This document shows positions 6,942 through 29,694 of a stretch of 32,198 bases of DNA, in pieces. A model generated the notes under the pieces. That model did not search any database and was not told the DNA's origin. It saw only the letters and a list, made by a program, of their open reading frames with translations. The first letter of the stretch is position 1. The number at the start of each line of letters is the position of its first letter. Made by a program: the position numbers and the translations under genes. This stretch comes from Spirochaetia bacterium (lineage in GTDB: Bacteria > Spirochaetota > Spirochaetia > Treponematales > UBA12059). The stretch spans positions 1 through 32,198 of the forward strand of contig JAVEXH010000001.1 of NCBI GenBank assembly GCA_034004175.1, read 5' to 3'.

Positions 6942-6962
6942 TGTTCATAGTGTATGCGGTCA

Positions 6963-8486: not shown

Positions 8487-8621
8487 AAAGACCACCTTTT
8501 GCTGTATACAGGAATGCCACGGATGATCGGAATGTATTCCCACCCTCCGTGGCCTTTTTGCCCGCAGGCTGTTGAAAAAGCGGTAGCCCCTCAACAGCCT
8601 GCTCTTTCTACCGGAACACTA

Positions 8622-9752: not shown

Positions 9753-9788
9753 AATCTCCTTACCTCCGTTTGGTTGAAAACTTGCACC

Positions 9789-9817
9789 ATTATCACCCTG
9801 TTGTCCTGGTTTCTGAA
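9789..9817 (-). promoter_or_regulatory. candidate promoter of the chvE-gguAB transporter genes (TTCAGA-N17-GATAAT)
   Basis: On the minus strand, TTCAGA (9817-9812), a 17-nt spacer and GATAAT (9794-9789), ~37 nt upstream of the chvE ATG. The weak -35 would fit activator dependence on the adjacent AraC-type regulator. Sequence inspection only. Confidence 0.3.
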
Positions 9818-9896
9818 ATCGTAAACTTTTGACAATAAGCGGTACTTTCTGGAGAGTGTGCTGTCTCAAGCCAGCTGTATGGGTAAAAAAGCGATG

Positions 9897-14855: not shown

Positions 14856-14901
14856 CGGGGCAGTATACCCCCCCTTTTTGGCGGGCACAAGCAAATGAAG
14901 A

Positions 14902-16157: not shown

Positions 16158-16619
16158 TCAGATGGCTCCTGAACTCTTGCGTTCGTTCTGGCCTATCTCG
16201 AAGGCTTGCTGGGAAATGATGCGGCCTTGGCGCTCTATGAGGGCCTTTACCACGTCACCGATGGAGATGACACCGACCAGTTTGCCGTTCTCCTTGACCG
16301 GGAGGTGTCGGAAATGATGGGCAGTCATAAGATCCATGCAGTTTTCTATGGAATCCGAGGGGTCTGCATAGACGATTTTCTTGGTCATAACCTCTTTTAC
16401 TATGGTCGTATCACAGGAATTGGCCTTGAGTATTATCTTTCGGGCAAAATCACGCTCCGAGAAAATGCCGGCTACTTCACCTGAAGCATCAAGCACGAGG
16501 ATGGCCCCGATGTTGTGTTCTGCCATGACTTCAAGGGCTTTCATGATGCCGGTTTCCGGCGTGACGCTGACTACTTCTGTTCCCTTTGAAGCGAGGATGT
16601 CCTTTACCTTCTCCACCAT
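16158..16619 (-). CDS. stand-alone CBS-pair domain protein
   Basis: 153 aa with two CBS repeats (VVSVTPETGIMKALEVMAEHNIGAILVLD...GIFSERD and VYADPSDSIENCMDLMTAHHFRHLPV...GVISIGD). AGGAGG SD. Divergent from the 13-gene operon. Confidence 0.85.
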   Translation of the reverse strand: MVEKVKDILASKGTEVVSVTPETGIMKALEVMAEHNIGAILVLDASGEVAGIFSERDFARKIILKANSCDTTIVKEVMTKKIVYADPSDSIENCMDLMTAHHFRHLPVKENGKLVGVISIGDVVKALIERQGRIISQQAFEIGQNERKSSGAI

Positions 16620-16752
16620 GCATGCACCTCCTGTGCGGCCCTGAGGCCGGCATGTTCTACGAGAAAACCCTAGTTTCCCGATGTATAGTCTGATTCAATA
16701 TACTGTTTGGCGATCAATACTGCAAGGAAATAGCGTTTTTTACATATTTCTG

Positions 16753-16780
16753 TTTACATATGTTTAACCTGAGCTATACT
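16753..16780 (+). promoter_or_regulatory. candidate sigma70-type promoter of the 13-gene operon (TTTACA-N16-TATACT)
   Basis: TTTACA at 16753-16758 and TATACT at 16775-16780, ~50 nt upstream of ATG 16832. TTTACATAT occurs twice as a direct repeat (16739-16747, 16753-16761). Confidence 0.35.
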
Positions 16781-16831
16781 GTCATAGAAATTTTGACCCG
16801 CTCCGGCGGGTATGCATCGAGGGGGAATCCT

Positions 16832-17329
16832 ATGATGACGATCAAGGCTCGAGTGCTGGGTTTCCTGGGTTTGTGGGCTGTGTGGCTTCTGCTGACGGCT
16901 CCCTGGACCACCCAGGAGGCTGTTGCGGGTGCACTGGTAGCGCTTCTTGTCTCCCTGTTGCCACTGTCAGGGGCATCACCACTTGGTGACCTGAAGCTGA
17001 GTCCGAAGGCCTTGGCCTCCCTGGTGGTGTATGTGTTTGTCTTCATCAAAGCCCTGGTGCAGTCCAATCTTGATGTAGCCTTCCGGGTGCTTCATCCGAG
17101 ACTGCCTATCGATCCGGGCATCGTGAAGGTAAAGACCAGGCTGAAGACCCCCTTGGGACGCCTGTTGCTTGCCAATTCCATAACCCTGACTCCAGGGACC
17201 ATAACCGTGGAGATGCACGGTGATGATCTGTACATCCACTGGATAAAGGTGGCCGACCCGGATCCGGAGGCTGCAACCGCGGCCATCGTCGGGAACTTCG
17301 AGAAGTATCTGGAGGTGATCTGTGGCTGA
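16832..17329 (+). CDS. MrpE/MnhE-like subunit (MbhA/MbxA position)
   Basis: Two N-terminal TMs plus the family motif NSITLTPGTITVE. Preferred start is ATG 16832 (GAGGGGG 6 nt upstream) rather than track start 16760. Confidence 0.8.
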   Translation: MMTIKARVLGFLGLWAVWLLLTAPWTTQEAVAGALVALLVSLLPLSGASPLGDLKLSPKALASLVVYVFVFIKALVQSNLDVAFRVLHPRLPIDPGIVKVKTRLKTPLGRLLLANSITLTPGTITVEMHGDDLYIHWIKVADPDPEAATAAIVGNFEKYLEVICG

Positions 17330-17582
17330 TGCGGTGTTTTACGTGGCCGTTGGCATTGCCGTACTGGCCCTGCTGCTGTCCGGCATACGTTTTGCCCTCG
17401 GGCCCTGGGCTATCGACCGGACCGTTGCCCTGGATGCCATGACCATACTGGCAACCTCCCTGATAGTGGCCTTTGCGCTTCTGTCCGGCAGGCGGATCTA
17501 CATCGACGTAGCCATGGTCTATGGCTTGGTCGGCTTTGCCGGTGTGGTGGCGGTGGCCCGCTACCTGGAAGGAGGCTTGTGA
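17322..17582 (+). CDS. MrpF/PhaF-like subunit (MbxB position)
   Basis: 86 aa, 3 TM, typical MrpF length and pattern (LGPWAIDRTVALDAM...YIDVAMVYGLVGF). GTG start has GGAGG 6 nt upstream and overlaps the previous stop by 8 nt. Confidence 0.8.
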   Translation: MADAVFYVAVGIAVLALLLSGIRFALGPWAIDRTVALDAMTILATSLIVAFALLSGRRIYIDVAMVYGLVGFAGVVAVARYLEGGL

Positions 17583-17959
17583 TGCTTGCCGTCATCGGAG
17601 CCTTTGTCAGTCTGACCGGCGCGGTGTTCTTCCTGCTTGCGGCCATAGGCCTCTTGCGCATGCCTGATGCCCTCAACCGCATGCAGGCAGGCACCAAAGC
17701 CACTACCCTGGGATCGATCCTTTTCCTTTTCGGCATAGGCATGATGCAACCCGGTTATCTGGGCCGGGTATTCATTCTTGTGGTCTTCATAGTGCTTACC
17801 AACCCGGTCAGTTCCAACGCCCTTGCACGGGCCGCCCATGCCAACAGGAAGCGTATCGGTGCCAGCCTGTCGATCGACGCCCTGGCCGATGATGAAGCTG
17901 CCATAGCGGCTGAAGACAGGAAAGCCGGCGGAAACAAGGAGGCAGTCCATGGTGCTTGA
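17582..17959 (+). CDS. MrpG/MnhG-like subunit (MbxC position)
   Basis: MnhG signature LRMPDALNRMQAGTKATTLG. ATG 17582 lies 6 nt after GGAAGGAGG (TGATG overlap); GTG 17579 is an alternative. Confidence 0.8.
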   Translation: MLAVIGAFVSLTGAVFFLLAAIGLLRMPDALNRMQAGTKATTLGSILFLFGIGMMQPGYLGRVFILVVFIVLTNPVSSNALARAAHANRKRIGASLSIDALADDEAAIAAEDRKAGGNKEAVHGA

Positions 17960-18275
17960 TATCATGCTACTGTCCGCAGGAGCCATCATGGTCGCCGCAG
18001 GCATAGGCGCTGTCCTGGCGAGGAGCCTGCTCGTCTCCATCATATTGTCCGGCGGCGTAAGCCTGGTGGCCAGCCTGGTTTTCCTGCTCATCGGCGCTCC
18101 TGATGTAGCCATGACCGAGGCTGCAATCGGCTCGGGCCTGACCACCGTGGTCTTCCTGTATGCCCTGTCCCGGGCCAGGCAGGCCGATGACGAGGACTCC
18201 GATGCTGCCGAGATCGGTGCCTCGCCCGTAGTAGCTGAAACCGGGACAAACCAGGAACAGGGAGGCCGGACATGA
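17949..18275 (+). CDS. MbhD/DUF4040-like subunit (MrpA C-terminal-like; MbxD position)
   Basis: 108 aa, 3 TM, motif GAPDVAMTEAAIGSGLTTV characteristic of the MrpA-C/MbhD family. AAGGAGG SD. Confidence 0.75.
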   Translation: MVLDIMLLSAGAIMVAAGIGAVLARSLLVSIILSGGVSLVASLVFLLIGAPDVAMTEAAIGSGLTTVVFLYALSRARQADDEDSDAAEIGASPVVAETGTNQEQGGRT

Positions 18276-18970
18276 TGCGAAGATTCCTTGTTCTGGCTGT
18301 GATCATCGCCCTTGGTGTGGCGATGTGGCCTCTGGTGATGGGTGCCGGGGTTGTCGATGCACCTGCTGCCCTGCCTTCTGCCTACCTGGACGGCGCTCCG
18401 AAGGACTTCGGGGCGGCCAATGTGGTTACCGCCATTGTGGTCAGTTACCGCGGCTTTGATACCTTGGGAGAGGTGGCCGTGCTGTTCGCAGCTACCGCCG
18501 GTGTTGGTAGCCTGTTGTCGCGCAAGCGGCTTGGGACCGGCCTGCCGGCCAGCGGACGCAAGCACGGCACTGAGATCCTGGGAACCGCCAGCAGGCTGTT
18601 GTCCAGCCTCCTTGTCATGTTCGGTGTATACATCTTCATGCATGGACACCTGACCCCGGGCGGCGGTTTCCAGGGCGGTGTGGTCATAGCTACGGCCATG
18701 TTGCTGGCCTTGCTGTCCAACCCTGATTCCCACCTGGCCCACGGTGCCATGACCGCAGTTGAGTCGTTGTCCGGGGCGGCCTACGTAGCCCTGGCCTTGC
18801 TGGGAGCCTTCCTCGGGCTGGGCTTCCTGGATCCACGGATCCTTCCCCCGGGTTCCGTAGGTGCCCTGGTAAGTGCGGGAACCATTCCACTCATCTATTC
18901 TGTCATCGGGCTCAAGGTCGGCGCCGAGCTGTCCGGCATCCTGGATGCACTGAAAGGAGACAGGACATGA
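18272..18970 (+). CDS. MnhB/MrpB-domain subunit (MbxF position, with N-terminal MbhE-like helix)
   Basis: MnhB motifs NVVTAIVVSYRGFDTLGE and GHLTPGGGFQGG. ATGA-type overlap with the previous gene. GGAGG SD. Confidence 0.8.
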   Translation: MMRRFLVLAVIIALGVAMWPLVMGAGVVDAPAALPSAYLDGAPKDFGAANVVTAIVVSYRGFDTLGEVAVLFAATAGVGSLLSRKRLGTGLPASGRKHGTEILGTASRLLSSLLVMFGVYIFMHGHLTPGGGFQGGVVIATAMLLALLSNPDSHLAHGAMTAVESLSGAAYVALALLGAFLGLGFLDPRILPPGSVGALVSAGTIPLIYSVIGLKVGAELSGILDALKGDRT

Positions 18971-19338
18971 ACATGTTAGACTTCCTTGCCCAGCTGAACC
19001 CCGTTGCGGTTCCCGGTGCCATACTCATACTGGTGGGGCTGTGGGGCGTACTGGCCAGGCCCAACCTGTTCAAGATTGCCGTGGCCTTCTGCGTCCTTGA
19101 GACCGGTGTGAACATGCTGATCCTGTCCGTCGGGTACATCCGTGGCCGTACGGCACCCATCTACGATGCGGGTGCCCCGACCGCTGCGCGTATGACCGAT
19201 CCGGTGCCCCAGGCCCTGGTCCTGACTGCCATTGTCATCGGACTTGCGGTTACCGCCCTCATGCTCAGCTATGCAGTGCGCCTGCGCAGCGGCGGTGGCG
19301 CTTCTTCCATAGAAGCCTACGGAGAAGAAAAATGGTAA
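18967..19338 (+). CDS. MnhC/MrpC, NuoK-like subunit (MbxG position)
   Basis: 123 aa, 3 TM with an acidic residue in a TM (CVLETGVNMLIL), as in the NuoK/MrpC family. AAGGAG SD 7 nt upstream. Confidence 0.75.
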   Translation: MNMLDFLAQLNPVAVPGAILILVGLWGVLARPNLFKIAVAFCVLETGVNMLILSVGYIRGRTAPIYDAGAPTAARMTDPVPQALVLTAIVIGLAVTALMLSYAVRLRSGGGASSIEAYGEEKW

Positions 19339-22300
19339 ACCCCCTCTACTTCTTCGCCGCTTCCATGGCGGTAGCCTTCATCCTGCCCCTGGCTGACAAG
19401 CTTGGCAGACGGCTGTCCTTGTTCATACTGTATGCCGTAACGGCAGCCTGGGCAGCGGCTGGAGCCTCCTGGCTGCTGGCCCTGCTTCAGGATGGTTTCC
19501 AAAGTGCACTGCAGAGCGGCGCTGCCACCGACTTCGGTACTGCCGGCTTCGGCGCTCCCCTGGCCATTGTGCTCAGGGTAGGGCTGGTTGAGGCTGCAGC
19601 GGTACTGGCCATAGGTCTTGTAGGCCTGTTGTCCGCTGCCTTCATGCACCGCGACCTGCACAAGGCACCTCTGGGTGGCTCCATGGCCTTCATCATGGCA
19701 GTCATGGGCCTTGCAGGCATCGTCCTGACCAGGGACCTCTTAAACCTGTTCGTGTTCCTGGAAATCTCCGCCATTGCCACCTATGGACTCATAGGCTTTG
19801 ATGACCGCAGGCCTGCCCTGCGCTCGGCCTTCAAGTACATGATGGCCGGCGGCATTGCCAGCGCCCTGTACCTGATAGGCGTCATCTACGTGTACCGCTT
19901 CGGGGACACCCTGAACCTGGACATAGCCGCCGCCGCCTTGGCTGCAAGTGGCACCGCCGGCCTCGGCAGCGCCGCCGGTACGGTTGCCATCTTCTTCCTG
20001 CTGGCAGCCCTGCTGGTGGAGCTGAAGCCCTTCCCGGCCAATGGCTGGGGTATCGATGTCTACGAAACCGCCAATCCCGGTGTGGCTGCCCTGCTGTCCG
20101 GGGCCTCGGCTACCGCCCTGGTGGTGGCGCTCTGGAAGCTGCTGCCCATCCTGGGCACTGCCCACCTGGCCATAGTGGCAGGCAGCGGGCTGGCTACCTT
20201 TGCGGCTGCCAACCTGGCCGGTGCCCGCCAGAGCGGTACCAGGCGTATGCTTGGCTACTCCTCGGCCGCCCAGATAGGCCTCGTAACCGCAGTGGTGGCC
20301 CTGGTGAAGCTTTTGAACCTCGGCGACTCCGGCTTCATGCTGATGGTGGCCGGGGGTCTGACCCTGAACCACCTCCTGGCCAAGACCGGCCTCTTCCTGC
20401 TTTCCGGCATGTTGGGTGACGACGACAGCAAGGCTATCATGTCGCCCCTTACCCTGGCGGTGGCCGGCATGCTGGCCCTTGGCCTGGTAGGCCTGCCTCC
20501 CTTCTCCGGCTTCTGGGCCAAGTGGCAGTTGGTGCAGGCCCTGGCCTCCGGCGGGCATTTCTGGATCATCGTCATAGTACTGGGCGGAAGCCTGGTGGAA
20601 GCCTTCTATATATTCCGCTGGCTTGGCCGTCTTGCAAAAGCCAGGCAGGCTGCCGCTGATCCACTGGCTGCCAGTCTGGCCGATGCCGGCCTCCTGAGGG
20701 CTGGCCGGCAACTAGCCGGCCCGGCCCTGATGGCCGTGGCTCTGGCTGGCTTCGGTGTGCTGGCTGGCCTGGATGCGTTGGCTGGGTTGGAAGTGCTGAC
20801 TGGGGCCGGCGGGAATGCCGCTGTTGCCGGTCTTGCCGGATACCTCCTCTGGGCGCCTTACCTGGCCGTGGCGATGCTGTTCCTGGTGGACCGGGCTCCC
20901 GGCTGGTTCAAGGGGTTGTTGTCCCTCGCGGCGATTGCCGGTTTCGGCTGGCTGGCCTGGGACGGGCTGGATGCACTGCGGCAGTTCTTCGCGGTTATGC
21001 TGCTCGGGGGCGGGGCCATGTACGCTGTGGCTGCGCTCCGCAAGGGCGGAGCCAGACCGGGGCTGCATCCGCTGATGACCATGGTTACCCTGTCACTTGG
21101 TGCAGTGCTGGTGGCGCAGAGCCCTCTGGGCTTCTTCTTTGCCTGGGAAACGATGACGCTGTCCAGCTGGCTCCTGGTACTCCGGGGCCGCAGAGCCGAG
21201 AAGCCAGCCCTGGCCTACATAGTCTTTGGCCTCGGTGGTGCCTTCCTGTTGATGACCGGCCTGGCAGCTGGCGGGCTTGGGACAGCCGGACTCGGGATGG
21301 CCGGGATGGCTGCCGCAGGCAGTTCCGCAACCGCAGCCTGGCCCTTTGCGCTGGTGCTCGTAGGTATTCTGGTGAAGACCGGTGTGCTGGGCCTGCATGT
21401 GTGGCTGCCGGGCTCTTATGCCGAGGCAGACGACGAGGTGTCCGGCCTCCTGTCGGCTTCCCTGTCAAAAGCGGCGGTCTTTGCGCTCTTTGCCCTGGTT
21501 CTGGCCAATGGAGTACCTGGAGCCCTGGCTCTTGGTCCCTGGGCCTGGCGCGCCTTGGGCTGGGTAGGCCTTGTCACCGCCATGATAGGCGCCCTGTACG
21601 CCATCTACCAGGAAGACATCAAGCTTACCCTGGCCTGGTCTTCCATGGGACAGATAGGCTATGTGGTGCTGGCCTTTGCGGTGATGGACCACGCAGGCTG
21701 GACTACCGCACTGTACCTGGCCCTGAACCATTTCCTGTACAAGTCCATGCTGTTCCTGGCCATTGCCGGGGTCATCCAGCGGACGGGAACGCGCAACATG
21801 TACGAGATGGGCGGGCTCATCAAGAAGATGCCCCTGTCCTTCCTTACGGTGCTGATGGCCATCATCGCCCTGTCCGGTGTGCCGCCCCTCTCCGGCTTCG
21901 GAGCCAAGTGGCTGCTGTATTCCACCCTGATCAGCAAGGGCTGGTATCTTGAGGCTGCAGCTGCCTTCTTTGCCAGCGGTGTGGCCTTCCTGTACCTGTA
22001 TCGACTGATACACTCCATCTTCCTGGGCCAGCCCAAGTCGGAACACAAGGATATCCGGGAAGCTCCATTGGCCCTCATCCTGCCCCAGGTCGGCCTGATG
22101 GCCGTCCTGATGGCGGTGTCGGTCTTCCCGTCCCTTATGCTCAACCCGATACTGGCGATTGCCGGCAACAGCTTCGAGCCTATCTTCCGCTTCGCAGGTT
22201 CCGCCCTGCAGTCTCCCCTTGGCTACTGGAACGGCACCCTGACCATGGTGGTAACCGGCGTGGTCTTCGTCCTCTGCCTGGTGTGGATGATGGTCAACCT

Positions 22301-22583
22301 TCACAACCCGCAATCGGTGAAGCAGTTCAACATTGTGTTTGCAGCCGAGCGGCCCCTGAGGCCCAATACCACCCATTACGCCTGGGCCTTCTTCGAGCCA
22401 TACCGTGACGCACTGGGCTTTTTGACCAGATCCAGAGTCGAGCGCTTCTGGTCGACTTTTGGTACCGGTATCAACGGAATCGGAGGAGTCCTGCGAAGGC
22501 TGTACACGGGCAACGGCCAGACTTACGCACTCCACGTCGTCATCTATGTGGTGGCACTCTACTTTTTCATGGGGGCCTTCTGA
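19332..22583 (+). CDS. fusion of two antiporter-like (NuoN/MrpD-type + NuoL/M/HyfB-type) proton-pump modules (MbxH-MbxH' equivalent in one polypeptide)
   Basis: 1083 aa. Module 1 (~aa 1-455): LFVFLEISAIATYGLIGF, ELKPFPANGWGIDVYETANPGVAALLSG, PPFSGFWAKW. Module 2 (~aa 560-1083): WETMTLSSWLLV, LVKTGVLGLHVWLPGSY, WSSMGQIGYV, NHFLYKSMLFLAIAG, PPLSGFGAKW. No stop or frame change between them. Confidence 0.85.
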   Translation: MVNPLYFFAASMAVAFILPLADKLGRRLSLFILYAVTAAWAAAGASWLLALLQDGFQSALQSGAATDFGTAGFGAPLAIVLRVGLVEAAAVLAIGLVGLLSAAFMHRDLHKAPLGGSMAFIMAVMGLAGIVLTRDLLNLFVFLEISAIATYGLIGFDDRRPALRSAFKYMMAGGIASALYLIGVIYVYRFGDTLNLDIAAAALAASGTAGLGSAAGTVAIFFLLAALLVELKPFPANGWGIDVYETANPGVAALLSGASATALVVALWKLLPILGTAHLAIVAGSGLATFAAANLAGARQSGTRRMLGYSSAAQIGLVTAVVALVKLLNLGDSGFMLMVAGGLTLNHLLAKTGLFLLSGMLGDDDSKAIMSPLTLAVAGMLALGLVGLPPFSGFWAKWQLVQALASGGHFWIIVIVLGGSLVEAFYIFRWLGRLAKARQAAADPLAASLADAGLLRAGRQLAGPALMAVALAGFGVLAGLDALAGLEVLTGAGGNAAVAGLAGYLLWAPYLAVAMLFLVDRAPGWFKGLLSLAAIAGFGWLAWDGLDALRQFFAVMLLGGGAMYAVAALRKGGARPGLHPLMTMVTLSLGAVLVAQSPLGFFFAWETMTLSSWLLVLRGRRAEKPALAYIVFGLGGAFLLMTGLAAGGLGTAGLGMAGMAAAGSSATAAWPFALVLVGILVKTGVLGLHVWLPGSYAEADDEVSGLLSASLSKAAVFALFALVLANGVPGALALGPWAWRALGWVGLVTAMIGALYAIYQEDIKLTLAWSSMGQIGYVVLAFAVMDHAGWTTALYLALNHFLYKSMLFLAIAGVIQRTGTRNMYEMGGLIKKMPLSFLTVLMAIIALSGVPPLSGFGAKWLLYSTLISKGWYLEAAAAFFASGVAFLYLYRLIHSIFLGQPKSEHKDIREAPLALILPQVGLMAVLMAVSVFPSLMLNPILAIAGNSFEPIFRFAGSALQSPLGYWNGTLTMVVTGVVFVLCLVWMMVNLHNPQSVKQFNIVFAAERPLRPNTTHYAWAFFEPYRDALGFLTRSRVERFWSTFGTGINGIGGVLRRLYTGNGQTYALHVVIYVVALYFFMGAF

Positions 22584-23497
22584 TGGAAACTTCGATACTC
22601 GCCCGCATCGGCTATGCCCTGGTATCCCTGTTCGTCATAACCAACTACGGCCTGCTGCTCATAGGATCCATGGCGCGGATAAGTGCCAAGGTCCAGGGCC
22701 GTGTGGGCCAGCCGGTCTACCAGCCTTACCTGGACATCATCAAGAGCACGGCCAAACGCAACACCATAAGCCATGGCATCATGTTCTACCTGGGGCCTGT
22801 CTTCCGCCTGGCAGGCGGGGTAGGCACCTTCATGTTCATACCCATGGTGTACGGTTCGGTGCTGTTCCGGAACTTCAGCGATTCCGGTGACCTCCTGCTG
22901 GTGATGTACTTCATCTTCTTCGGCCAGCTTGGCATGGCCCTGGGAGCCAGTGAAGGCGGCCACCCCTACAGTGCCCTCGGCGTAAGCCGGGGCCTGGCCC
23001 AGATGACGGCCTTTGAAGTGCCCTTTGCCCTGTCGGTGATAGCGGTGGTCATACAGTACGGCACCCTGGATATTACCGCCATAGTTGGGGCCCAGCAGGG
23101 CGGGTTCATGAACTGGACCCTGTTTAACAACCCGGTGGCCGTGCTTGCCGCGATGATAGCCTTCCTGGGCATGTCGGGTCACAACCCTTTCAGTGTCGTC
23201 ATAGCACCCCAGGAAATACCCATAGGGCCGCCGACGGAATACCAGAGCAACCTCCTGGGCATGCTGCAGACCAACCGGGCCATCTTCAACGGCGCCAAGC
23301 TGGTTCTGTACATGAACCTCTTCTTCGGCGGTGGTACGAACATTGTCATTGTTGTGATAAAAACCTTCTTGATATATTTCGTGAATGTGTTCGTGGGGCA
23401 GGCCTTCCCACGGCTCCGGACCGACCAGTCGATCCGGTTCTTCCTCGGCGTGCCCACACTCATAGGCATTGCCGGCGTCATCATAGCTGTGCTGTAG
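22583..23497 (+). CDS. NuoH/HycD/MbhM-like membrane subunit
   Basis: 304 aa, ~8 TM. N-terminal pattern RISAKVQGRVGQPVYQPYLDIIK matches the R-x-A-x-Q-x-R-x-GP...QP-x-D-x-xK motif of the NuoH/HycD family. TGATG overlap with the preceding gene. Confidence 0.85.
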   Translation: METSILARIGYALVSLFVITNYGLLLIGSMARISAKVQGRVGQPVYQPYLDIIKSTAKRNTISHGIMFYLGPVFRLAGGVGTFMFIPMVYGSVLFRNFSDSGDLLLVMYFIFFGQLGMALGASEGGHPYSALGVSRGLAQMTAFEVPFALSVIAVVIQYGTLDITAIVGAQQGGFMNWTLFNNPVAVLAAMIAFLGMSGHNPFSVVIAPQEIPIGPPTEYQSNLLGMLQTNRAIFNGAKLVLYMNLFFGGGTNIVIVVIKTFLIYFVNVFVGQAFPRLRTDQSIRFFLGVPTLIGIAGVIIAVL

Positions 23498-23507
23498 GAG
23501 GCGCCTC

Positions 23508-24173
23508 GTGTCAGACAAACAAATCAAACCGGCGCCTTCGGCGACAACAAGAGCTGAATCCTTGACAACGCCGCTGGCCAACGAGGGCCTGCCGCCTGAA
23601 GAGCATGCGTACTTCTGCGATGTGCCGCCCCGGGAATACGAACCTGCCACCAAGGTGGTGGAGGATTTCTGGAACTGGGCCCGGGCCCAGAGCCTGTGGG
23701 TGCTGGGCTTCGGTACCGGCTGCGGCGCCGTGGAACTGCGGCCCCTGATGACCAGCCGCTTCGACATGTACCGCTATGGCATACAGCCGCGGCCAACGCC
23801 CAGACAGTCATCGGTCTTTGTCATCGGCGGCTACGCCTCGGTGAAGACCCTGAAGCGCATCGTCCGCAGCTACGAGCAGATGATGGGACCCAAGTTCGTG
23901 CTGGCCCTTGGCAGCTGCACCATCAACGGCGGCATGTACTGGGACAGCTACAACACCATCAAGCGCATAGACCAGTACATACCCGTGGATGTGTACATCG
24001 CGGGCTGCATGCCCAGGCCCGAGGCTCTGCTGGCAGGCTTCCAGGAGTTGAAGAAAATCATCCGGGCAGGCCAGGCAGACGGCCAGAACGAATACGCCCG
24101 GAACTTCGAATGGTACAAAGAGAACCAGAAGAAGGTCATCAAGGACTGGAACATGCCGGATTACAACTGGTAG
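23508..24173 (+). CDS. NuoB/HycG/MbhJ-like small subunit with incomplete Cys ligand set and an N-terminal extension
   Basis: Colinear by eye with E. coli NuoB: NWARAQSLWVLGFGTGCGAVE / TPRQSS / GSCTINGGMY / IPVDVYIAGCMPRPEA. GTG start has AGGAGG 6 nt upstream. Confidence 0.85.
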   Translation: MSDKQIKPAPSATTRAESLTTPLANEGLPPEEHAYFCDVPPREYEPATKVVEDFWNWARAQSLWVLGFGTGCGAVELRPLMTSRFDMYRYGIQPRPTPRQSSVFVIGGYASVKTLKRIVRSYEQMMGPKFVLALGSCTINGGMYWDSYNTIKRIDQYIPVDVYIAGCMPRPEALLAGFQELKKIIRAGQADGQNEYARNFEWYKENQKKVIKDWNMPDYNW

Positions 24174-24183
24174 GAGGCCGCAT

Positions 24184-24729
24184 ATGATCAAACTTGCTAC
24201 TGAACTGGCGGCCCGTTACGGCTCCCGGGGCTGGCGGAACCAGCGCCCGGATCTGGCCGTCGTGCAGATCGACCTTGCCAGGCTGCATGACGCCCTTGCC
24301 TGGCTCAGGGACAACGCGGGGTACACCCATCTGTCCTTCATGACCGCGATCGACAATATCGAACGCGGTGTCTTTACCCTGACCTACACCCTGCGTAACC
24401 ACGCCTGGAATGATGGCAAGGGCCACAGCCTGATGGTCCATGCCGATGTGGACCGCAGCAAGCCCGTGGTTGATTCCATCCACCGGCTCTGGGGCCAGGC
24501 CTGGACCTACCAGCGGGAGATGAAGGAATGGTTCGGCATCGACTTCCCCGGCAGCCCCAGGGTTGATGAGGAGTTCGTGCTGGAAGGCTGGCAGGGACCG
24601 CCCATGATGCGCCGCGATTTTGACAGCCTGGTCTACAGCGAAGCCACCTATACCGAGCGTCCCGGCCGGGTTACCCACGACCCCGAAACCTACATGAAAG
24701 AGAAGCTGTACCCGGAGGCCCAGGCATGA
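24184..24729 (+). CDS. NuoC/30-kDa/MbhK-like subunit
   Basis: 181 aa. C-terminal family motif WTYQREMKEWFGIDFPGSP (ERE-x-x-D-x-FGI-x-F-x-GHP type). AGGAGG SD. Confidence 0.8.
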   Translation: MIKLATELAARYGSRGWRNQRPDLAVVQIDLARLHDALAWLRDNAGYTHLSFMTAIDNIERGVFTLTYTLRNHAWNDGKGHSLMVHADVDRSKPVVDSIHRLWGQAWTYQREMKEWFGIDFPGSPRVDEEFVLEGWQGPPMMRRDFDSLVYSEATYTERPGRVTHDPETYMKEKLYPEAQA

Positions 24730-25889
24730 AAAAGCAAACTCAACACATTGTGCCTCCTGCCGAACGCGCTGACATTGACCTGGACTCAGGCAAGTACCTG
24801 GTTATGTGGCAGGGGCCCAACCACCCCGGCATAACCGGCAACATGTCCCTGCGGCTGGTAATTGAAGGAGACACCGTAGTCGACTGCGAGACCCACGTGG
24901 GCTACCTGCACCGGGGTTTCGAGAAGCTCATGGAACGACGGTTGTGGATGCAGAACTTCCCGCTGGTGTGCCGCATCGCGGTGCCCGAGCCTGACTTCAA
25001 CGAATACTGCTACGCTGCCGCGCTGGAGGAACTCGCTGGCGTGGAGGTTCCCGACAAGGCCATATGGCTGCGCACCCTGTCCCTGGAGATGATACGCCTG
25101 GCCAGCTTCCTGATGTGGATAGGCGGGCAGGCCGGCGCCTTCGGGCACGGCACCATTGGCCAGTGGACAGTAACCATGCGCGACTACGTGCTGGACCTCT
25201 TCGAGGAACTGACCGGCGGCCGCATCTACCACATGTATATCATACCCGGCGGTGTCCGTGGCGATGTGCCTCCCGGTTTCCTGAAGCATGTGCTACAGAC
25301 CATGGACATCATCCAGAAAAACCTGGATGACATTGAACTGGTAATGTTCCATAACGTGGTCTACAAGATGCGTGCCCAGGGCCTGGGCTACATACCGCCG
25401 GAATGGATCGACCAGTACGGCATCACCGGGCCCAATGCCAGGGCTGCAGGTGTCAATCGTGACCTGCGCAAAGACCTTGGCTATCTGGCCTATCCGCGGC
25501 TCGACTTCCAGCCCATAACCAGCACGGTCTCCGATGCCTACGAGCGGTCCAGGCTGCGTCTGCTGGAAACGCATCAGGCTATCGACCTGATACGCCAGAT
25601 AGTGGCCAACCTGCCGTCAGATGGCCCCTTCCGGGAGAAGCTGCCCAACCCCTTGTACTGGAAGATACCCGCCGGCGAGACCTATGTGGCAGCCGAATGC
25701 ACCCGGGGTGAGTACGGTTTCTATGTGGTTTCCGATGGCTCGGACAAGCCCCGGCGGGTCGCGGTGCGAGGACCCAGCTATACCCATGCGGTGTCTGTGA
25801 TGGAGCGCCTGGTGCGGGGCGTGAACATAGCAGACGTGGCCGGCCTGATGGTCAGCCTTCATACCTATCCGCCCGAAGTCGAGAGGTGA
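24726..25889 (+). CDS. NuoD/49-kDa/[NiFe]-hydrogenase-large-subunit-like protein lacking all Ni-Fe cysteine ligands
   Basis: 387 aa. Family motifs: GPNHPG, HVGYLHRGFEKLME, GGRIYHMYIIPGGVR, ECTRGEYGFYVVSDG, RVAVRGPSYTH. Ends ...SLHTYPPEVER. ATGA overlap with the NuoC-like gene. Confidence 0.85.
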   Translation: MKKQTQHIVPPAERADIDLDSGKYLVMWQGPNHPGITGNMSLRLVIEGDTVVDCETHVGYLHRGFEKLMERRLWMQNFPLVCRIAVPEPDFNEYCYAAALEELAGVEVPDKAIWLRTLSLEMIRLASFLMWIGGQAGAFGHGTIGQWTVTMRDYVLDLFEELTGGRIYHMYIIPGGVRGDVPPGFLKHVLQTMDIIQKNLDDIELVMFHNVVYKMRAQGLGYIPPEWIDQYGITGPNARAAGVNRDLRKDLGYLAYPRLDFQPITSTVSDAYERSRLRLLETHQAIDLIRQIVANLPSDGPFREKLPNPLYWKIPAGETYVAAECTRGEYGFYVVSDGSDKPRRVAVRGPSYTHAVSVMERLVRGVNIADVAGLMVSLHTYPPEVER

Positions 25890-25893
25890 GGCA

Positions 25894-27750
25894 ATGGATA
25901 TAAAGGACTTCATCGCGCCCTTTGCGGTGTGGAAGCGGGCTTTCGAGAAACCCTTCACGGTAAAGAAGCCCATAGACGAGCGCCCTGGCGCACCACGGTA
26001 CCGGGGCTTCCATATAAACGATTCAGCCAGGTGTGTGGGTTGCGGTACCTGCGAAGCCATCTGCATGAACAATGCCATAGATATGGTTCCGGTTGACGAT
26101 TTGTTGCCGGATGGTGGTGATTCGGGCCTGCGGCCCCGGGTGGACTACGGCCGCTGCTGCTGGTGTGCCCTCTGCGTGGACATCTGTCCCTCGGGCTCTC
26201 TTGGCATGAGCAATGAGTATGTCTGGGTAGACCGCGACCCCGAAGTATTCCGCTACACCCCCGGTGTGGAGGCCAAGCCCTGGGACGGCGCCGAACTGGG
26301 TTACCGCCGGGCCGATGGCTACCGCCTGCTTGAAGAAGAACGAGTGGACATGCCCGAGCTGGACCACCACGAAGCAGTGAAATCCTTCCTTGAACTGGTT
26401 CGGGGCTACTCCCGGGAGCAGGCCGAGAAGGAAGCCGACCGCTGCGTATCCTGCGGGGTCTGCGTGGCATCCTGCCCGGCCCATATGGACATACCAGGCT
26501 ACATCCGGGCTGTGCGTGAGGGCGATCTGGAGGAAGGCCTGCGGCTGCTGTACGAGACCAATCCCTTTCCCGAGGCCTGTGGCCGCATCTGTACCCACCT
26601 CTGCGAGGCCGCTTGTTCAGTAGGATCGGGGATGAATGCCGACGGAACTCCGACAGACCCGGTGGCTATACGCTGGCTGAAACGCTACATAGCCGACCAG
26701 GTGGAGCTGGCCGATTACGGCAAGGCCCTGCCCAGGGCCGAAGCTCCCACCGGCAAGAAGATTGCCATAATCGGTGCAGGACCCGGCGGCTTGGCCGCAG
26801 CCTATTATCTGGCCCTGCTTGGCCATGGCGTTACGGTATTCGAGAAAGACGAAGCCGCCGGCGGCATGCTGCGCTACGGCATCCCTGAATACCGCCTGCC
26901 GTACCCCGCCCTGGACAAGGACATAGCCTGGATCACCTCCCTGGGTGTAGAGATACGTTACGGAACGGCAGTGGGCAAGGATCTGAGCCTGGCGTCCCTG
27001 TACAGCGACTACGATGCCGTATTCCTGTCCACCGGCCTTACGGTGGCCTACAAGCTGGATGTGCCTGGCGACAGCCACCCCCGGGTGCTGGACGGCGTGG
27101 CTGTACTTGCCGCCGCAACCAGAGGCGAGCCCCTAGGGCTTGGCCAGAAAGTGGCTGTGGTCGGCGGCGGCAACGTCGCCATGGACGCCGCACGGACGGC
27201 CCTGCGCAACGGCGCCGAGGTGGACATAGTCTACCGCCGCCGGGAAGTGGACATGCCAGCGGACCCCGAAGAGATCATGGAAGCCAAGGCCGAAGGTGCC
27301 ACTCTCATAGCCCAGGCAATTCCCCTGGAAGTGAAGCCCGCAACCGGTCCCGGTGCCGGGCCGGTTGCTGCCGACAAGGCCGGGTCGGATGCCGCCGGCG
27401 AGACCGCCACCAAGGCAACTTTCGTCTGGAACCTGGCGGAGATGGTGCAGAAGGAGCCGGGCAAGCGCCCCGTTCCCGAGCCCATACCCGGTGCAGTGGT
27501 CGAGAAGACATACGACTCCATCATAGCCGCCATAGGCCAAGGCCCGGACCTGTCGTACGTGGCCGAATCCGATGGCATAGAGCTGCGTCGATACAAACCG
27601 GTGATCGGTCCCGATGGCCGCACCAGCCGTGCCACCGTTTTTGCCGGCGGAGACCTGACCAACGACCGCAAGGACGCCATCTCTGCCATAGCCGACGGCC
27701 ACCGCGCCGCCCTGGCCATGGATCGCCTCCTTGCCGGAAAGGAAGCCTGA
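25894..27750 (+). CDS. fusion protein: NuoI/MbhN-like 2x[4Fe-4S] ferredoxin domain + GltD/SudA/NfnB-like NAD(P)H-dependent FAD oxidoreductase
   Basis: aa 47-57 CVGCGTCEAIC and aa 88-99 CCWCALCVDICP (NuoI-type). aa 184-195 CVSCGVCVASCP and 229-241 CGRICTHLCEAAC (GltD N-terminal Fe-S region). KKIAIIGAGPGGLAAAYYL...EKDEAAGGMLRYGIPEYRLP (FAD site). KVAVVGGGNVAMDAART...VYRRR (NAD(P)H site). VFAGGDL...AIADGHRAALAMD. Confidence 0.85.
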   Translation: MDIKDFIAPFAVWKRAFEKPFTVKKPIDERPGAPRYRGFHINDSARCVGCGTCEAICMNNAIDMVPVDDLLPDGGDSGLRPRVDYGRCCWCALCVDICPSGSLGMSNEYVWVDRDPEVFRYTPGVEAKPWDGAELGYRRADGYRLLEEERVDMPELDHHEAVKSFLELVRGYSREQAEKEADRCVSCGVCVASCPAHMDIPGYIRAVREGDLEEGLRLLYETNPFPEACGRICTHLCEAACSVGSGMNADGTPTDPVAIRWLKRYIADQVELADYGKALPRAEAPTGKKIAIIGAGPGGLAAAYYLALLGHGVTVFEKDEAAGGMLRYGIPEYRLPYPALDKDIAWITSLGVEIRYGTAVGKDLSLASLYSDYDAVFLSTGLTVAYKLDVPGDSHPRVLDGVAVLAAATRGEPLGLGQKVAVVGGGNVAMDAARTALRNGAEVDIVYRRREVDMPADPEEIMEAKAEGATLIAQAIPLEVKPATGPGAGPVAADKAGSDAAGETATKATFVWNLAEMVQKEPGKRPVPEPIPGAVVEKTYDSIIAAIGQGPDLSYVAESDGIELRRYKPVIGPDGRTSRATVFAGGDLTNDRKDAISAIADGHRAALAMDRLLAGKEA

Positions 27751-27751
27751 C

Positions 27752-28207
27752 ATGAACCAGACAGATTTTGCCGGGGCCCTTGAACTGGCCCTGGCCAGGG
27801 AAGAAGCAGCGGTTGCCTTCTACGAAGAATTGATGGGCATGGCCTCTTTTGCCGCCCAGAAGTCCACACTCCGGGAGTTCAGGCTCATGGAAGAAGGACA
27901 TGTGGCCATGGTCAAGTCCATGCAGGCCAAAGGCAGGGTAAACCTGTCACCCGATGCCGCCGTGGACCTTGGCCTGGCCCGCCGCCTGGCGGCCGAAGAA
28001 AAACCAGCCGCCGGCATGAGCTACCAGCAGATCCTGTCAGCCGCCATAAAGAAGGAAGAGCGCAGCAGCGACTTGTACCGTGACCTGGCCGCCGCTGCGG
28101 TTGACGGCGAGATACACCTGGTGTTCGAGCGCCTGGCAGCCGAAGAAAGCAGGCACAAGCACTACTTCGAGGAACTGTACGAGAACGAGGTGAGTAGAGA
28201 TAATTAG
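27752..28207 (+). CDS. rubrerythrin/ferritin-like diiron four-helix-bundle protein without rubredoxin domain
   Basis: 151 aa with no Cys. Ligand pattern E...ExxH twice (REEAAVAFYEE, MEEGH, KKEERSSDLY, AEESRH). ATG at 27752 lies 1 nt after the TGA of the upstream gene, with GGAAAGGAAG upstream; track start 27731 rejected. Confidence 0.7.
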   Translation: MNQTDFAGALELALAREEAAVAFYEELMGMASFAAQKSTLREFRLMEEGHVAMVKSMQAKGRVNLSPDAAVDLGLARRLAAEEKPAAGMSYQQILSAAIKKEERSSDLYRDLAAAAVDGEIHLVFERLAAEESRHKHYFEELYENEVSRDN

Positions 28208-28314: not shown

Positions 28315-28348
28315 TGCCATAAATGCAGAAATACTTGCATTTATGGCA
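28315..28348. repeat. perfect 13-bp inverted repeat (TGCCATAAATGCA-N8-TGCATTTATGGCA): terminator of the long operon and/or operator of the downstream gene
   Basis: Arms at 28315-28327 and 28336-28348 are exact reverse complements. It lies 108 nt after the rubrerythrin-like stop and 27 nt before the ATG at 28375. The stem is AT-rich with no clean U-tract. Confidence 0.6.
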
Positions 28349-28374: not shown

Positions 28375-29694
28375 ATGGAACGATTGCTTGTAAAGGAACT
28401 TGAGGCATGGAAAAGCCGACAAGGCAGGAAACCCCTGCTTCTCAAGGGCGTACGCCAATGTGGCAAGACGTATCTGCTCAGGGAGTTCGGCAAAGCACAT
28501 TTCAGTGATGTCGCATACTTCAATTTCGAGCTTACCCCAGCCCTTTCAGGTCTCTTTGAAATTGATCTGGATCCATCCCGCATCATCACTGAACTGGGTA
28601 TCCTGCAAGGGCAGAAGATCGAGACTGAGACAACCCTGATCATCTGGGATGAGGTACAGTTCTGCCCTAAGGCTCTGACCGCCCTCAAGTATTTCTCGGA
28701 GCTGGCCCCAGGGTATGCCTTGGCCTGTGCTGGCTCACTTCTGGGTGTGGCCTTGTCGAAACCCTCCTCTTTTCCGGTGGGTAAGGTTGATATCCTGGTT
28801 CTGCGGCCGATGGATTTCCGTGAGTTCCTGGTAGCAAGCCAGGAGAAGCAACTCATCGACTATGCAGCCGGTTTGCCTCCGGATGGGCAGCTTTCCCAAG
28901 CGTTGATTGACAAGTTTTTGGTAGCCCTCAGGATGTTCCAGATAATCGGCGGAATGCCTGAAGCAGTCTCAGCATGGCTACAGAACCGGAATATGGCTGA
29001 GGTGGAGAGAATACAGGATGCCATCCTGGCTAGCTATGAGCTTGATTTTGCCAAATATGCCCCTCCTGCGGATTTTCCGAAGCTCAAGCTGATATGGAAG
29101 AGCATCCCTGCCCAGTTATCCAGGGAAAGCGGGAAATTCCTGTACGGCCACGCAAAGCCGGGGGCACGGGCCAAGGATCTGAAGGACGCCCTGGGCTGGC
29201 TTACCGAGGCAGGCCTTGCATACAAGGTAGGAAGGGTAGAGAAACCAGCCTTCCCCTTGTCCGCCTATATGGACCAGAAAGCCTTCAAGCTGTACCTGGC
29301 GGATATCGGGTTGCTGCGCCGTCTGGCAGGAGTGCCGGGTTCTGTCATGCTCGACGGGAATACCCTGTACAGCGAGTTCAAAGGTGCTCTGATGGAAAAC
29401 TTTGTCCTGAATGAGTTGCTGCGCTTTCTGGGAGACCTGCCCAGCTACTGGACTTCCGGGAATCAGGCAGAGGTGGATTTTGTCTTCCAGTACCATGACA
29501 GCATCCTGCCCCTGGAAGTAAAAGCAGCGACGAATATTCGCTCCCGAAGTTTGGCTGCCTACAGGGAAAAGTACCGACCGCAACTGGCCTTGCGGACCTC
29601 ACTGATGGCGTGCAAGTCCGAGGATGGGCTGTTGAACATTCCGTTGTATCTCTTATGGAACATGGCTGTGTATGTGAGGAAGGTGCTTTCCTGA
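28375..29694 (+). CDS. AAA+ ATPase with C-terminal DUF4143 / PD-(D/E)xK nuclease-like domain
   Basis: Walker A GVRQCGKTYL and Walker B LIIWDEVQ. C-terminal EVDFVF...LPLEVKAA resembles a D...ExK restriction-endonuclease-fold motif. AAGGGG SD 8 nt upstream. Confidence 0.8.
   Translation: MERLLVKELEAWKSRQGRKPLLLKGVRQCGKTYLLREFGKAHFSDVAYFNFELTPALSGLFEIDLDPSRIITELGILQGQKIETETTLIIWDEVQFCPKALTALKYFSELAPGYALACAGSLLGVALSKPSSFPVGKVDILVLRPMDFREFLVASQEKQLIDYAAGLPPDGQLSQALIDKFLVALRMFQIIGGMPEAVSAWLQNRNMAEVERIQDAILASYELDFAKYAPPADFPKLKLIWKSIPAQLSRESGKFLYGHAKPGARAKDLKDALGWLTEAGLAYKVGRVEKPAFPLSAYMDQKAFKLYLADIGLLRRLAGVPGSVMLDGNTLYSEFKGALMENFVLNELLRFLGDLPSYWTSGNQAEVDFVFQYHDSILPLEVKAATNIRSRSLAAYREKYRPQLALRTSLMACKSEDGLLNIPLYLLWNMAVYVRKVLS

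Follow-up and report, generated by a model that had tools for sequence, protein, structure and literature searches.

A spirochaetal operon for an MBS/Mbx-like membrane complex with a fused NfnB/GltD-like flavoprotein module

Which reaction would be catalysed by a membrane complex that joins an Mrp-type antiporter module to a core related to complex I and group 4 hydrogenases? This question is raised by an operon on a 32,198-bp contig (JAVEXH010000001.1) of a metagenome-assembled Spirochaetia bacterium, an uncultured, mesophilic host; the whole contig is called the window here. Thirteen open reading frames (ORFs; g1 to g13) on the plus strand lie between 16832 (or 16760) and 28207. The original prediction, made from the letters of the window, had described them as colinear with the archaeal mbx/mbs operons, with both catalytic-site subunits degenerate. 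The best explanation that we can offer, with a probability of roughly 45%, is a complex of the type of the sulfane reductase MBS of Pyrococcus furiosus (formerly MBX; PDB 6U8Y), in which a flow of electrons from NAD(P)H via FAD and five [4Fe-4S] clusters to sulfane sulfur, or to an acceptor like it, would be coupled to ion transport. The operon is a further, spirochaetal member of a known, widespread and biochemically uncharacterised MBS/Mbx-like subfamily. Its genes are the following.

16832..17329, plus strand: g1, MrpE/MbsA-like membrane subunit (Pfam MNHE, E 1.4e-39), with a Shine-Dalgarno-like motif; the longest ORF starts at 16760
17322..17582, plus strand: g2, MrpF/MbsB-like (Pfam MrpF_PhaF, E 5e-17), with an 8-nt overlap with g1
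17579..17959, plus strand: g3, MrpG/MbsC-like (Pfam PhaG_MnhG_YufB, E 3.8e-23)
17949..18275, plus strand: g4, MbhD/MbsD-like (Pfam MbhD, E 3.9e-20)
18272..18970, plus strand: g5, MbsE-like, with MbhE and MnhB domains in one protein (Pfam; top PDB match 6u8y_E)
18967..19338, plus strand: g6, MnhC/NuoK/MbsG-like (Pfam Oxidored_q2, E 3.4e-18)
19332..22583, plus strand: g7, fused antiporter-like pumps with an MbsH-like N-half and an MbsH'-like C-half (two Pfam Proton_antipo_M domains, 1083 aa)
22583..23497, plus strand: g8, NuoH/MbsM-like anchor of the peripheral arm (Pfam NADHdh, E 4.8e-47; top PDB match 6u8y_M)
23508..24173, plus strand: g9, NuoB/MbsJ-like small subunit (Pfam Oxidored_q6; top PDB match 6u8y_J)
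24184..24729, plus strand: g10, NuoC/MbsK-like (Pfam Complex1_30kDa, E 1.6e-21)
24726..25889, plus strand: g11, NuoD/MbsL-like large subunit (Pfam Complex1_49kDa; top PDB match 6u8y_L)
25894..27750, plus strand: g12, fusion of an MbsN/NuoI-like and an NfnB/GltD-like part, 618 aa (Pfam Fer4_7, Fer4_20, Pyr_redox_2)
27752..28207, plus strand: g13, ferritin/rubrerythrin-like four-helix protein, 151 aa (Pfam Rubrerythrin, E 3.6e-9)

In a profile search of the 13 ORFs, all Pfam families that the original prediction had named scored above the gathering score. From g1 to g13 the families run MNHE, MrpF_PhaF, PhaG_MnhG_YufB, MbhD, MbhE plus MnhB, Oxidored_q2, two copies of Proton_antipo_M, NADHdh, Oxidored_q6, Complex1_30kDa, Complex1_49kDa, Fer4 and Rubrerythrin. 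This corresponds to the order A-B-C-D-E-G-H-H'-M-J-K-L-N of Pyrococcus, so that the supposed colinearity was borne out, as was the statement that the genes do not form a nuo, hyc/hyf/ech or stand-alone mrp operon. Translational coupling between the mrp-like and the redox-arm genes is the reason for rejecting a role as a stand-alone Mrp antiporter.

Comparison with solved structures makes it very likely that the complex belongs to the MBS/Mbx family as one of its bacterial members. Among solved structures, P. furiosus MBS supplies the best homologue of the E-, H-, H'-, M-, J- and L-like subunits and of the N-like domain, by wide margins. g5 matches 6u8y_E over its full length with 158 bits (MBH, 53 bits), and g8 matches 6u8y_M, likewise with 158 bits (NDH-1, 60 bits). 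g9 is 55% identical to 6u8y_J (E 9e-67, 228 bits; NdhK, 141 bits), and g11 is 43% identical to MbsL (6u8y_L, E 1e-93, 317 bits; Nqo4, 212 bits; MbhL, 125 bits). The top match of the N-half of g7 is 6u8y_H (MbsH), and that of the C-half is 6u8y_X (MbsH'), aligned to residue 613 of 618 and covering the region of the C-terminal lateral helix. All matches of g10 are weak, with 6u8y_K third, and this subunit is too divergent to tell MBS from complex I. The A-, B-, C-, D- and G-like subunits (g1-g4 and g6) were assigned by Pfam only.

A neighbour-joining tree of large subunits, based on 50%-identity cluster representatives drawn from 1.8 billion proteins, places the window and 11 related loci (representative P0121) in a clade that is sister to the P. 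furiosus MbsL clade; both are apart from NuoD-type and NiFe-hydrogenase-type sequences. The original prediction held that it would have to be given up if the catalytic subunits branched inside a biochemically characterised clade with identical active-site residues. What was found lies halfway: the ligands of the catalytic cluster are identical to those of MBS, but the clade is a sister of MbsL and the pocket of the large subunit differs. A scan of one genome per species yielded 406 related loci, and gene order was counted in the best 80 of these. All of the best 80 that are long enough to show it have the order g1-g12, and this arrangement is conserved far beyond chance.

Is the active site degenerate, as had been claimed for both catalytic subunits? 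In the cryo-electron microscopy structure of MBS, the proximal [4Fe-4S] cluster is ligated by C28, C93 and C123 of MbsJ alone; C25 is too distant for ligation, in a loop that is three residues shorter than that of MBH, and the open iron of this cluster is the proposed catalytic site of polysulfide reduction (PMC7684303). Alignments that match the published residue numbering exactly put C72, C137 and C167 of g9 at the positions of these three ligands and Gly69 at the position of the non-ligand C25, with the loop aligned to that of MbsJ without a gap. The glycine and the three cysteines are invariant in 53/53 orthologues. The tandem Cys-Cys of the complex I cluster N2 is absent; the motif is GTGCG and not CC. 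g9 therefore carries a predicted three-Cys proximal [4Fe-4S] site of the MBS type, and with Gly in place of C25 the three-Cys state is, to judge from the orthologues, hard-wired in the bacterial clade. The small subunit cannot be called degenerate because exactly the three cysteines of the MBS catalytic cluster are retained.

For the large subunit the earlier claim has to be divided. At the four positions of the NiFe cysteines (RxCGxC and DPCxxC) g11 has Ala85, Glu88, Tyr381 and Glu384, so the reported loss of the cysteines is complete (0/4), and membership in the group 4 [NiFe] hydrogenases (MBH/Ech/Hyc) is rejected. The cysteines lost here are, however, dispensable in MBS, in which the mutants C25A (MbsJ) and C85A/C385A (MbsL) stay active (PMC7684303). 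The position of MbsL C85 is occupied by Cys in 46, Ala in 32 (including g11) and Thr in 3 of 81 orthologues, that of C385 by Tyr in all 81. The quinone ligands H38 and Y87 of Nqo4 correspond to Thr37 and Val86 in g11, and Thr/Val is found in every orthologue, as in MbsL. On the other hand, the clade has residues of its own: C82, H379 and Y381 are present in 81/81 and C325 in 79/81 orthologues, a constellation that replaces L82, A, D and C385 of MbsL. By homology, these residues may lie within 2-3 residues of the positions that line the metal site of NiFe hydrogenases.

The strongest clue to one substrate is the predicted NfnB/GltD-like module of g12. Residues 1 to ~125 are MbsN/NuoI-like with two [4Fe-4S] clusters (the top PDB match for residues 5-120 is 6u8y_N), and residues ~150-616 are NfnB/GltD-like with two [4Fe-4S] clusters, FAD and an NAD(P)H site, as judged by motifs. 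Residues 151-615 match NfnB of Thermotoga maritima (4ylf_B, E 5e-77), with the glutamate synthase small chain scoring lower. An AlphaFold model of g12 with a predicted local distance difference test (pLDDT) score of 79.5 had NfnB as its top Foldseek match (template modelling score 0.79), followed by NfnABC, StnC, GltD and dihydropyrimidine dehydrogenase (DPD); no solved chain among the structure matches spans both halves. The designation of g12 as NuoI-like thus holds for the N-terminal domain, but the fused flavoprotein module had been overlooked.

All 17 cysteines of g12 are invariant in 69 orthologues, as are the glycine motifs for FAD and NAD(P)H. The cysteine motifs are two CxxCxxCxxxC in the NuoI-like part and CxxCxxCxxxC plus Cx3Cx3Cx3C in the Fer4_20 part. 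After the second Rossmann strand (residues 447-450) Y-R-R-R is found in 49/69 orthologues, and x-L-E at this nucleotide motif in the other 20, which come from Bacteroidales, Gammaproteobacteria and Marinimicrobia. YRRR would be a NADPH-type motif, as in NfnB and GltD, and the acidic residue of x-L-E a NADH-type one. In the region of residues 446-451 (27229-27246) YRRR occurs in Spirochaetota, Cloacimonadota and Zixibacteria; the loci with x-L-E are L053, L054, L057, L061-L073, L076-L078, L080 and the deep-branching L081, the Gammaproteobacteria among them being thiotrophic. The fusion of the N-like and GltD-like parts is a single ORF in 68/79 loci; of the remaining 11, a contig end truncates 9, and in two (L015, L052) the ORF is interrupted inside the contig. 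Ala/Gly/Pro-rich insertions specific to the window, at 27328-27408 (residues 479-505) and 26632-26646, are absent from most orthologues and are the reason why g12 has 618 aa and most orthologues have ~591 aa; residues 495-502 have a pLDDT below 50 in the model.

Carriers of the operon belong to Spirochaetota, Cloacimonadota, Zixibacteria, Marinimicrobia, Bacteroidales (including the isolate Prolixibacter bellariivorans) and Caldisericales, and include anaerobes of sulfidic habitats; the gammaproteobacterial carriers are thiotrophic, such as Thiodiazotropha and Sedimenticolaceae (sulfur-storing symbionts). The deeper-branching locus of P0121 (L081) has the fusion of H and H', the N-GltD fusion and the Gly substitution, whereas L083, a bacterial locus of the MbsL type, has separate H and H', an unfused N subunit of 197 aa and a cysteine of the C25 type. 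A subfamily is thus marked out by the fusions and the Gly signature, and across the loci the N-GltD fusion co-varies with the Gly substitution in the small subunit.

Based on these features, a path of electrons can be proposed. The flavin of Nfn is reduced by NADPH, and its electrons reach free ferredoxin through two [4Fe-4S] clusters. On the most economical reading, the NfnB-like module here would replace free ferredoxin as the donor, the "ferredoxin" being the covalently attached MbsN-like domain with its two clusters. A domain of this type feeds the proximal cluster in MBS. The FAD of the fused module would take electrons from NAD(P)H (in this organism, probably from NADPH), and these would then pass singly through the two [4Fe-4S] clusters of the module, the two MbsN-like clusters and the MbsJ-like proximal cluster, a chain of FAD and five [4Fe-4S] clusters in total with NAD(P)H at one end and the open-iron cluster at the other. 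That NAD(P)H is wired to the proximal cluster in this way is probable. One iron would be open, since the proximal cluster has three cysteine ligands only, as in P. furiosus MBS. At this iron a hydrophobic acceptor would be reduced, in a cavity between the L-, J- and M-like subunits, and the reduction would drive H+ or Na+ movement via the Mrp module and the two fused pumps, H and H'. The driving force would be small, and hence the reaction may also reverse.

The likeliest acceptor is sulfane sulfur, as polysulfide, persulfide or an organic trisulfide. Among the acceptors considered, it is the best supported by homology, by induction in Thermotoga on S0 and by the ecology of the carriers; the assignment is still a tentative one, somewhat less likely than not. 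In T. maritima, mbxA was up 4.4-fold on S0 (PMC9431562).

Several observations weigh against this proposal. By textbook potentials, NAD(P)H (about -320 mV) and polysulfide (about -260 mV) lie ~50-60 mV apart, which gives ~10-12 kJ per two electrons, a small yield for a complex in which two pump-type subunits are retained. The linker of g12 (~141-175) is modelled at a pLDDT of ~45, and the cluster-to-cluster geometry is not derivable from the model. The pocket of g11 differs from that of MbsL in C82, C325, H379 and Y381, and because of these residues the acceptor may differ from that of MBS. Among the neighbours of the 80 loci no sulfur-handling gene consistently adjoins the operon; the neighbours are lineage-specific, such as genes for an ArsR-like regulator, CRP-like regulators and DHO_dh-like and NfnAB-like proteins. 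Oceanispirochaeta carries the operon (P0029; L068), and for O. piezotolerans it was reported that elemental sulfur and thiosulfate are not used as terminal acceptors (PMC11129491). Finally, a literature search turned up no GltD-fused bacterial complex that had been studied biochemically or structurally, and we agree with the original prediction that the substrate in bacteria has yet to be established by experiment.

The main rival is the original Mbx model of an ion-translocating ferredoxin:NAD(P)+ oxidoreductase, an analogue of Rnf, in which ferredoxin would be oxidised at the NuoI-like domain, NAD(P)+ would be reduced at the flavoprotein and the energy gap would pump ions; in reverse, ferredoxin would be reduced by NAD(P)H at the expense of the gradient. 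This function was proposed for gltD-containing mbx-like operons (PMC4758237) and for bacterial Mbx (PMC4596419), and the Mrp-Mbx genes of Endoriftia are co-expressed with the ferredoxin-requiring reductive tricarboxylic acid (rTCA) cycle, their function being listed as unknown (PMC11636981). Modules of the NfnB type normally trade electrons with ferredoxin, the gap of ~130-180 mV between ferredoxin and NAD(P)H is better suited to two pump modules, and the model fits fermentative carriers that do not respire sulfur. It is thus the better fit to the energetics and to these carriers. However, a route from ferredoxin via the NuoI-like clusters to FAD bypasses the proximal cluster and the cavity between L, J and M, and leaves the invariant three-Cys site and the pocket residues unexplained; in P. 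furiosus, moreover, the ferredoxin:NADP+ model was superseded by direct polysulfide reduction (PMC7684303, PMC9431562). On balance we regard it as unlikely.

A chemistry that is unlike that of MBS would also account for the pocket. Cys82, Cys325, His379 and Tyr381 could form a new acceptor site or supply a fourth cluster ligand, or the NfnB-like FAD could bifurcate electrons between ferredoxin and the site in the membrane arm. The conservation of these residues in place of those of MbsL speaks for it, as does the fact that the closest solved relatives of the flavoprotein (NfnB, NfnABC and StnC) are all bifurcating and that the terminal accessory gene varies by lineage. Against it stand the lack of a NfnA-like partner among the window ORFs scanned, with NfnA-like genes adjoining only ~7 related loci, and the gene neighbourhood, which offers no candidate for an alternative substrate. 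The deep-branching P0121 is without C325 and has the MbsL-like C85/C385, yet the N-GltD fusion is already present. This reading, too, is improbable.

Reduction of quinone by NAD(P)H, with the NfnB-like input replacing NuoEFG, has the logic of complex I (a nucleotide-oxidising flavoprotein joined to a site of the NuoB/D/H type) and agrees with the public annotation of the subunits as NADH-quinone oxidoreductase, but it is very improbable given the missing quinone ligands in 81/81 orthologues, the missing tandem Cys-Cys of N2 and the scores of complex I subunits, which are far below those of MBS subunits. Equally implausible is the class proposed in the original prediction, an energy-converting hydrogenase-related (Ehr) complex with degenerate catalytic subunits and unknown or no redox chemistry at the old active site, for although all four NiFe cysteines are lost and biochemical data for the bacterial complexes are lacking, the small-subunit pattern is that of functional MBS and invariant, and the motifs for all five clusters, the flavin and the nucleotide show strict conservation across phyla. 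In the broad sense the Ehr label does apply, since Ehr was defined as related to group 4 hydrogenases without Ni/Fe-coordinating residues (quoted in PMC6349859); as a catch-all it is less precise than MBS/Mbx and too coarse for a complex with MBS as the top solved relative of seven subunits or domains.

How does the proposed MBS-type complex compare with known systems? With MBS of P. furiosus it shares the 13-subunit gene order, the Mrp-type arm with the two pumps H and H', the three-Cys proximal site in the same shortened loop and the lack of the quinone-binding His/Tyr. It differs in that MBS receives electrons from free ferredoxin via a stand-alone MbsN, whereas N is fused to the NfnB/GltD-like module here; H and H' are also fused, the fourth cysteine of the small subunit is a glycine, and the two vestigial NiFe cysteines of MbsL are Ala and Tyr, with C82, C325, H379 and Y381 there instead. 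An extra ferritin-like gene and a mesophilic bacterial host complete the differences.

Operons of the same architecture were described before. Degli Esposti (2015) reported "mbx-like" operons in Thermotoga and proteobacteria with a gltD-related flavoprotein at the position of NuoI, noted that such an operon "often terminates with rubrerythrin" and proposed NAD(P)+ reduction at the gltD-like subunit (PMC4758237). The architecture, including the terminal rubrerythrin, was thus known in 2015, and the window does not represent a new class. The Mrp module, the NuoH/B/C/D homologues, the gltD-like flavoprotein and the rubrerythrin-like last gene are common to the window and these gltD-type operons, MBX of T. 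maritima included (PMC4758237, PMC9431562). They differ in that NuoI was described as "substituted", whereas the window keeps the NuoI-like domain with its two [4Fe-4S] clusters in fused form. The published ferredoxin:NAD(P)+ function is older than the mechanism of MBS, and the induction of mbxA by S0 is the sole experimental datum.

To NfnB, NfnABC, StnC, GltD and DPD (4YLF, 9N5U, 9BOV, 8OH5 and 6S6T) the module is alike in its fold, the two [4Fe-4S] motifs, FAD and the NAD(P)H site with YRR. It differs from this family in its N-terminus, which is NuoI/MbsN-like and would dock to a membrane complex, and in its partner: a NfnA-like ORF ([2Fe-2S]/FAD/NAD) was not found among the window ORFs scanned, and membership in the NfnAB transhydrogenases is rejected for that reason, despite the NfnB-like module. 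With complex I (NDH-1) and the group 4 [NiFe] hydrogenases MBH, FHL and Ech, the operon shares the ancestry of the NuoB/C/D/H/I-type module and antiporter-like subunits. Unlike this group it is without NuoEFG, the tandem N2 cysteines, the quinone ligands and the NiFe cysteines, and it has subunits of the Mrp E/F/G type; membership in respiratory complex I is rejected on the absence of NuoE/F/G, on GTGCG in place of CC and on Thr37/Val86.

The pump subunits of g7 look functional. g7 is one ORF of at least ~1000 aa in 56/67 loci. Its H'-like C-half keeps the canonical Glu/Lys/Lys/His/Lys/Lys set: E606, K682, K713, H800 and K804 are found in 57/57 orthologues, and at K859 in transmembrane helix (TM) 12, 52 orthologues have a lysine and the remaining 5 an arginine. 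In the N-half, E144 (TM5), E230 and K232 (TM7) and K397 (TM12) are present in 57/57, and H347 and K351 (TM11) in 56/57, with one gap. At the position of MbsH K250 (TM8), however, Lys is never found; the 57 orthologues have Thr, Ala, Ser or Gly, which suggests that the proton path is rearranged in one of the two pump modules. In the window the stretch without the TM8 lysine is residues 256-264 (~20097-20123), and Glu230-Leu-Lys232-Pro in TM7 is invariant.

The last gene, g13, has two ExxH motifs (a putative diiron site) and no rubredoxin domain. Its top PDB match is the ferritin-like diiron-carboxylate protein TM1526, a weak match (E 0.002); the extra diiron protein described at the end of the operon is in line with the Rubrerythrin match and the two motifs. 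The most likely start is the ATG at 27752, 1 nt past the stop of g12, a TTG at 27731 being less likely. A gene with two ExxH motifs lies directly 3' of g12 in at least 26/70 loci of several phyla, and by lineage the terminal accessory gene is ferritin-like, DHO_dh-like or missing. A DHO_dh-family flavoprotein gene follows the N-GltD fusion in L081 (13074-14054), L082 (3676-4656) and ~8 loci of the Bacteroidales type (e.g. L065); a DHO_dh-like protein together with a GltD-like module recalls the domain set of dihydropyrimidine dehydrogenase. According to a preprint, a GltD-named NADH-dependent flavoprotein of Clostridioides difficile with a rubredoxin domain stimulates the peroxidase activity of rubrerythrin. 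By analogy, it is a reasonable guess that g13 is an accessory protein that shields the O2-labile three-Cys cluster from peroxide and is fed by the same flavoprotein.

The layout argues for expression as one unit. The junctions range from an 11-nt overlap (-11) to a 10-nt gap (+10); nine are overlaps, eight of them of the ATGA/GTGA or TGATG type. Shine-Dalgarno-like motifs precede 12/13 starts, the exception being g8, where the ATG shares nucleotides with the stop codon of g7. The tight junctions and ribosome-binding sites that had been reported are therefore confirmed. Two elements flank the genes.

16753..16780, plus strand: candidate sigma-70-like promoter, TTTACA-16 nt-TATACT, 10/12 match
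28315..28348, plus strand: hairpin with a perfect 14-bp inverted repeat, TGCCATAAATGCAG…TGCATTTATGGCA, between g13 and the AAA_14/DUF4143 gene

The same -35/-10 pair is conserved in sequence and position, at equal distance, in the spirochaete loci L003, L007, L009 and L010, and the conserved position therefore favours the ATG at 16832 as the start of g1. The hairpin is possibly a terminator with a weak T-tail or a protein-binding site. Together, the promoter-like site and the 3' hairpin fit a single, likely transcription unit of 13 genes. TTTACATAT occurs twice, 14 nt apart, at 16739-16747 and 16753-16761, the second copy being the -35 region of the predicted promoter, and may be an operator that overlaps the promoter; related spirochaete loci carry a similar AT-rich element, …ATATTTTG(C/T)TTTACATATAT…, in the equivalent position. 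In the 5' untranslated region (5'-UTR) of g1, between promoter and Shine-Dalgarno motif, lies a small GC-rich hairpin, CCCGC-N4-GCGGG (16796-16812), and hairpins of differing sequence stand at the corresponding position in L003, L010, L014 and L017. No consensus structure for this hairpin emerged from RNAalifold, and single-sequence z-scores were insignificant (best -1.8); given this, a conserved RNA structure upstream of g1 is not claimed. An Rfam scan of the whole window gave no match.

Further genes noted in the window belong to a sugar-uptake/sensing cluster on the minus strand (5715-14984), which appears unrelated to the operon, and to its immediate flanks.

5715-6941, minus strand: ABC permease, sugar cluster
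6963-8594, minus strand: ABC ATPase, sugar cluster
8622-9869, 9897-10958 and 13905-14984, minus strand: three Peripla_BP_4 binding proteins, sugar cluster
10955-12433, minus strand: AraC-type response regulator, sugar cluster
12418-13335, minus strand: His_kinase/HAMP sensor, sugar cluster
14902-15924, minus strand: URO-D family protein, divergent, just upstream of the operon
16158-16619, minus strand: tandem-CBS-domain protein, divergent, just upstream of the operon
28375-29694: AAA_14/DUF4143 ATPase gene, downstream of g13

The CBS protein is not a conserved neighbour; it is found upstream in L010 only.

The window itself contains no unique material, and its value is that of a clean, complete example together with the signatures of the whole family. 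What is added here is the finding that the locus includes a fused NAD(P)H module, the invariant MBS-type ligand set in a small subunit that had been taken for degenerate, the clade-specific residues of the large subunit and the split into NADPH- and NADH-type motifs; all four are directly testable. Such complexes are spread among many anaerobic and sulfur-cycling bacteria, from Spirochaetota, Cloacimonadota, Zixibacteria, Marinimicrobia and Bacteroidales to Thermotoga and thiotrophic symbionts. In public annotation, the NuoD-like protein (MDX9956819.1) is a "NADH-quinone oxidoreductase subunit D" and the GltD-like one (MDX9956820.1) a "FAD-dependent oxidoreductase" or glutamate synthase small chain; the closest NCBIfam model to the g12 fusion is PRK13984, "putative oxidoreductase", below its cut-off. 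Because of such generic names the complex is hidden from automated annotation, and under the labels "NADH-quinone oxidoreductase" and "glutamate synthase small chain" it is ignored in metabolic reconstructions or assigned by analogy.

If the wire from NAD(P)H to the open iron is true, the complex would connect the pyridine-nucleotide pool to sulfane sulfur, or to some other acceptor, by an energy-conserving route that parallels complex I and Rnf. This route would then have to be built into models of fermentation, of sulfur reduction and of reverse electron flow. One may go further and speculate that the GltD/NfnB-fused clade is a distinct, reversible, ion-motive and NAD(P)H-linked respiratory enzyme, with a fixed open-iron [4Fe-4S] cluster and a new pocket of Cys82, Cys325, His379 and Tyr381; this is doubtful, though not far-fetched. 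Fermenters could then rid themselves of NAD(P)H by passing its electrons to sulfane sulfur or to a different hydrophobic acceptor, and sulfur-storing autotrophs could run the enzyme backwards, spending the ion gradient to obtain NAD(P)H or low-potential electrons from sulfide. The split between the NADPH-type (YRRR) and NADH-type (x-L-E) motifs would then reflect differing physiological roles.

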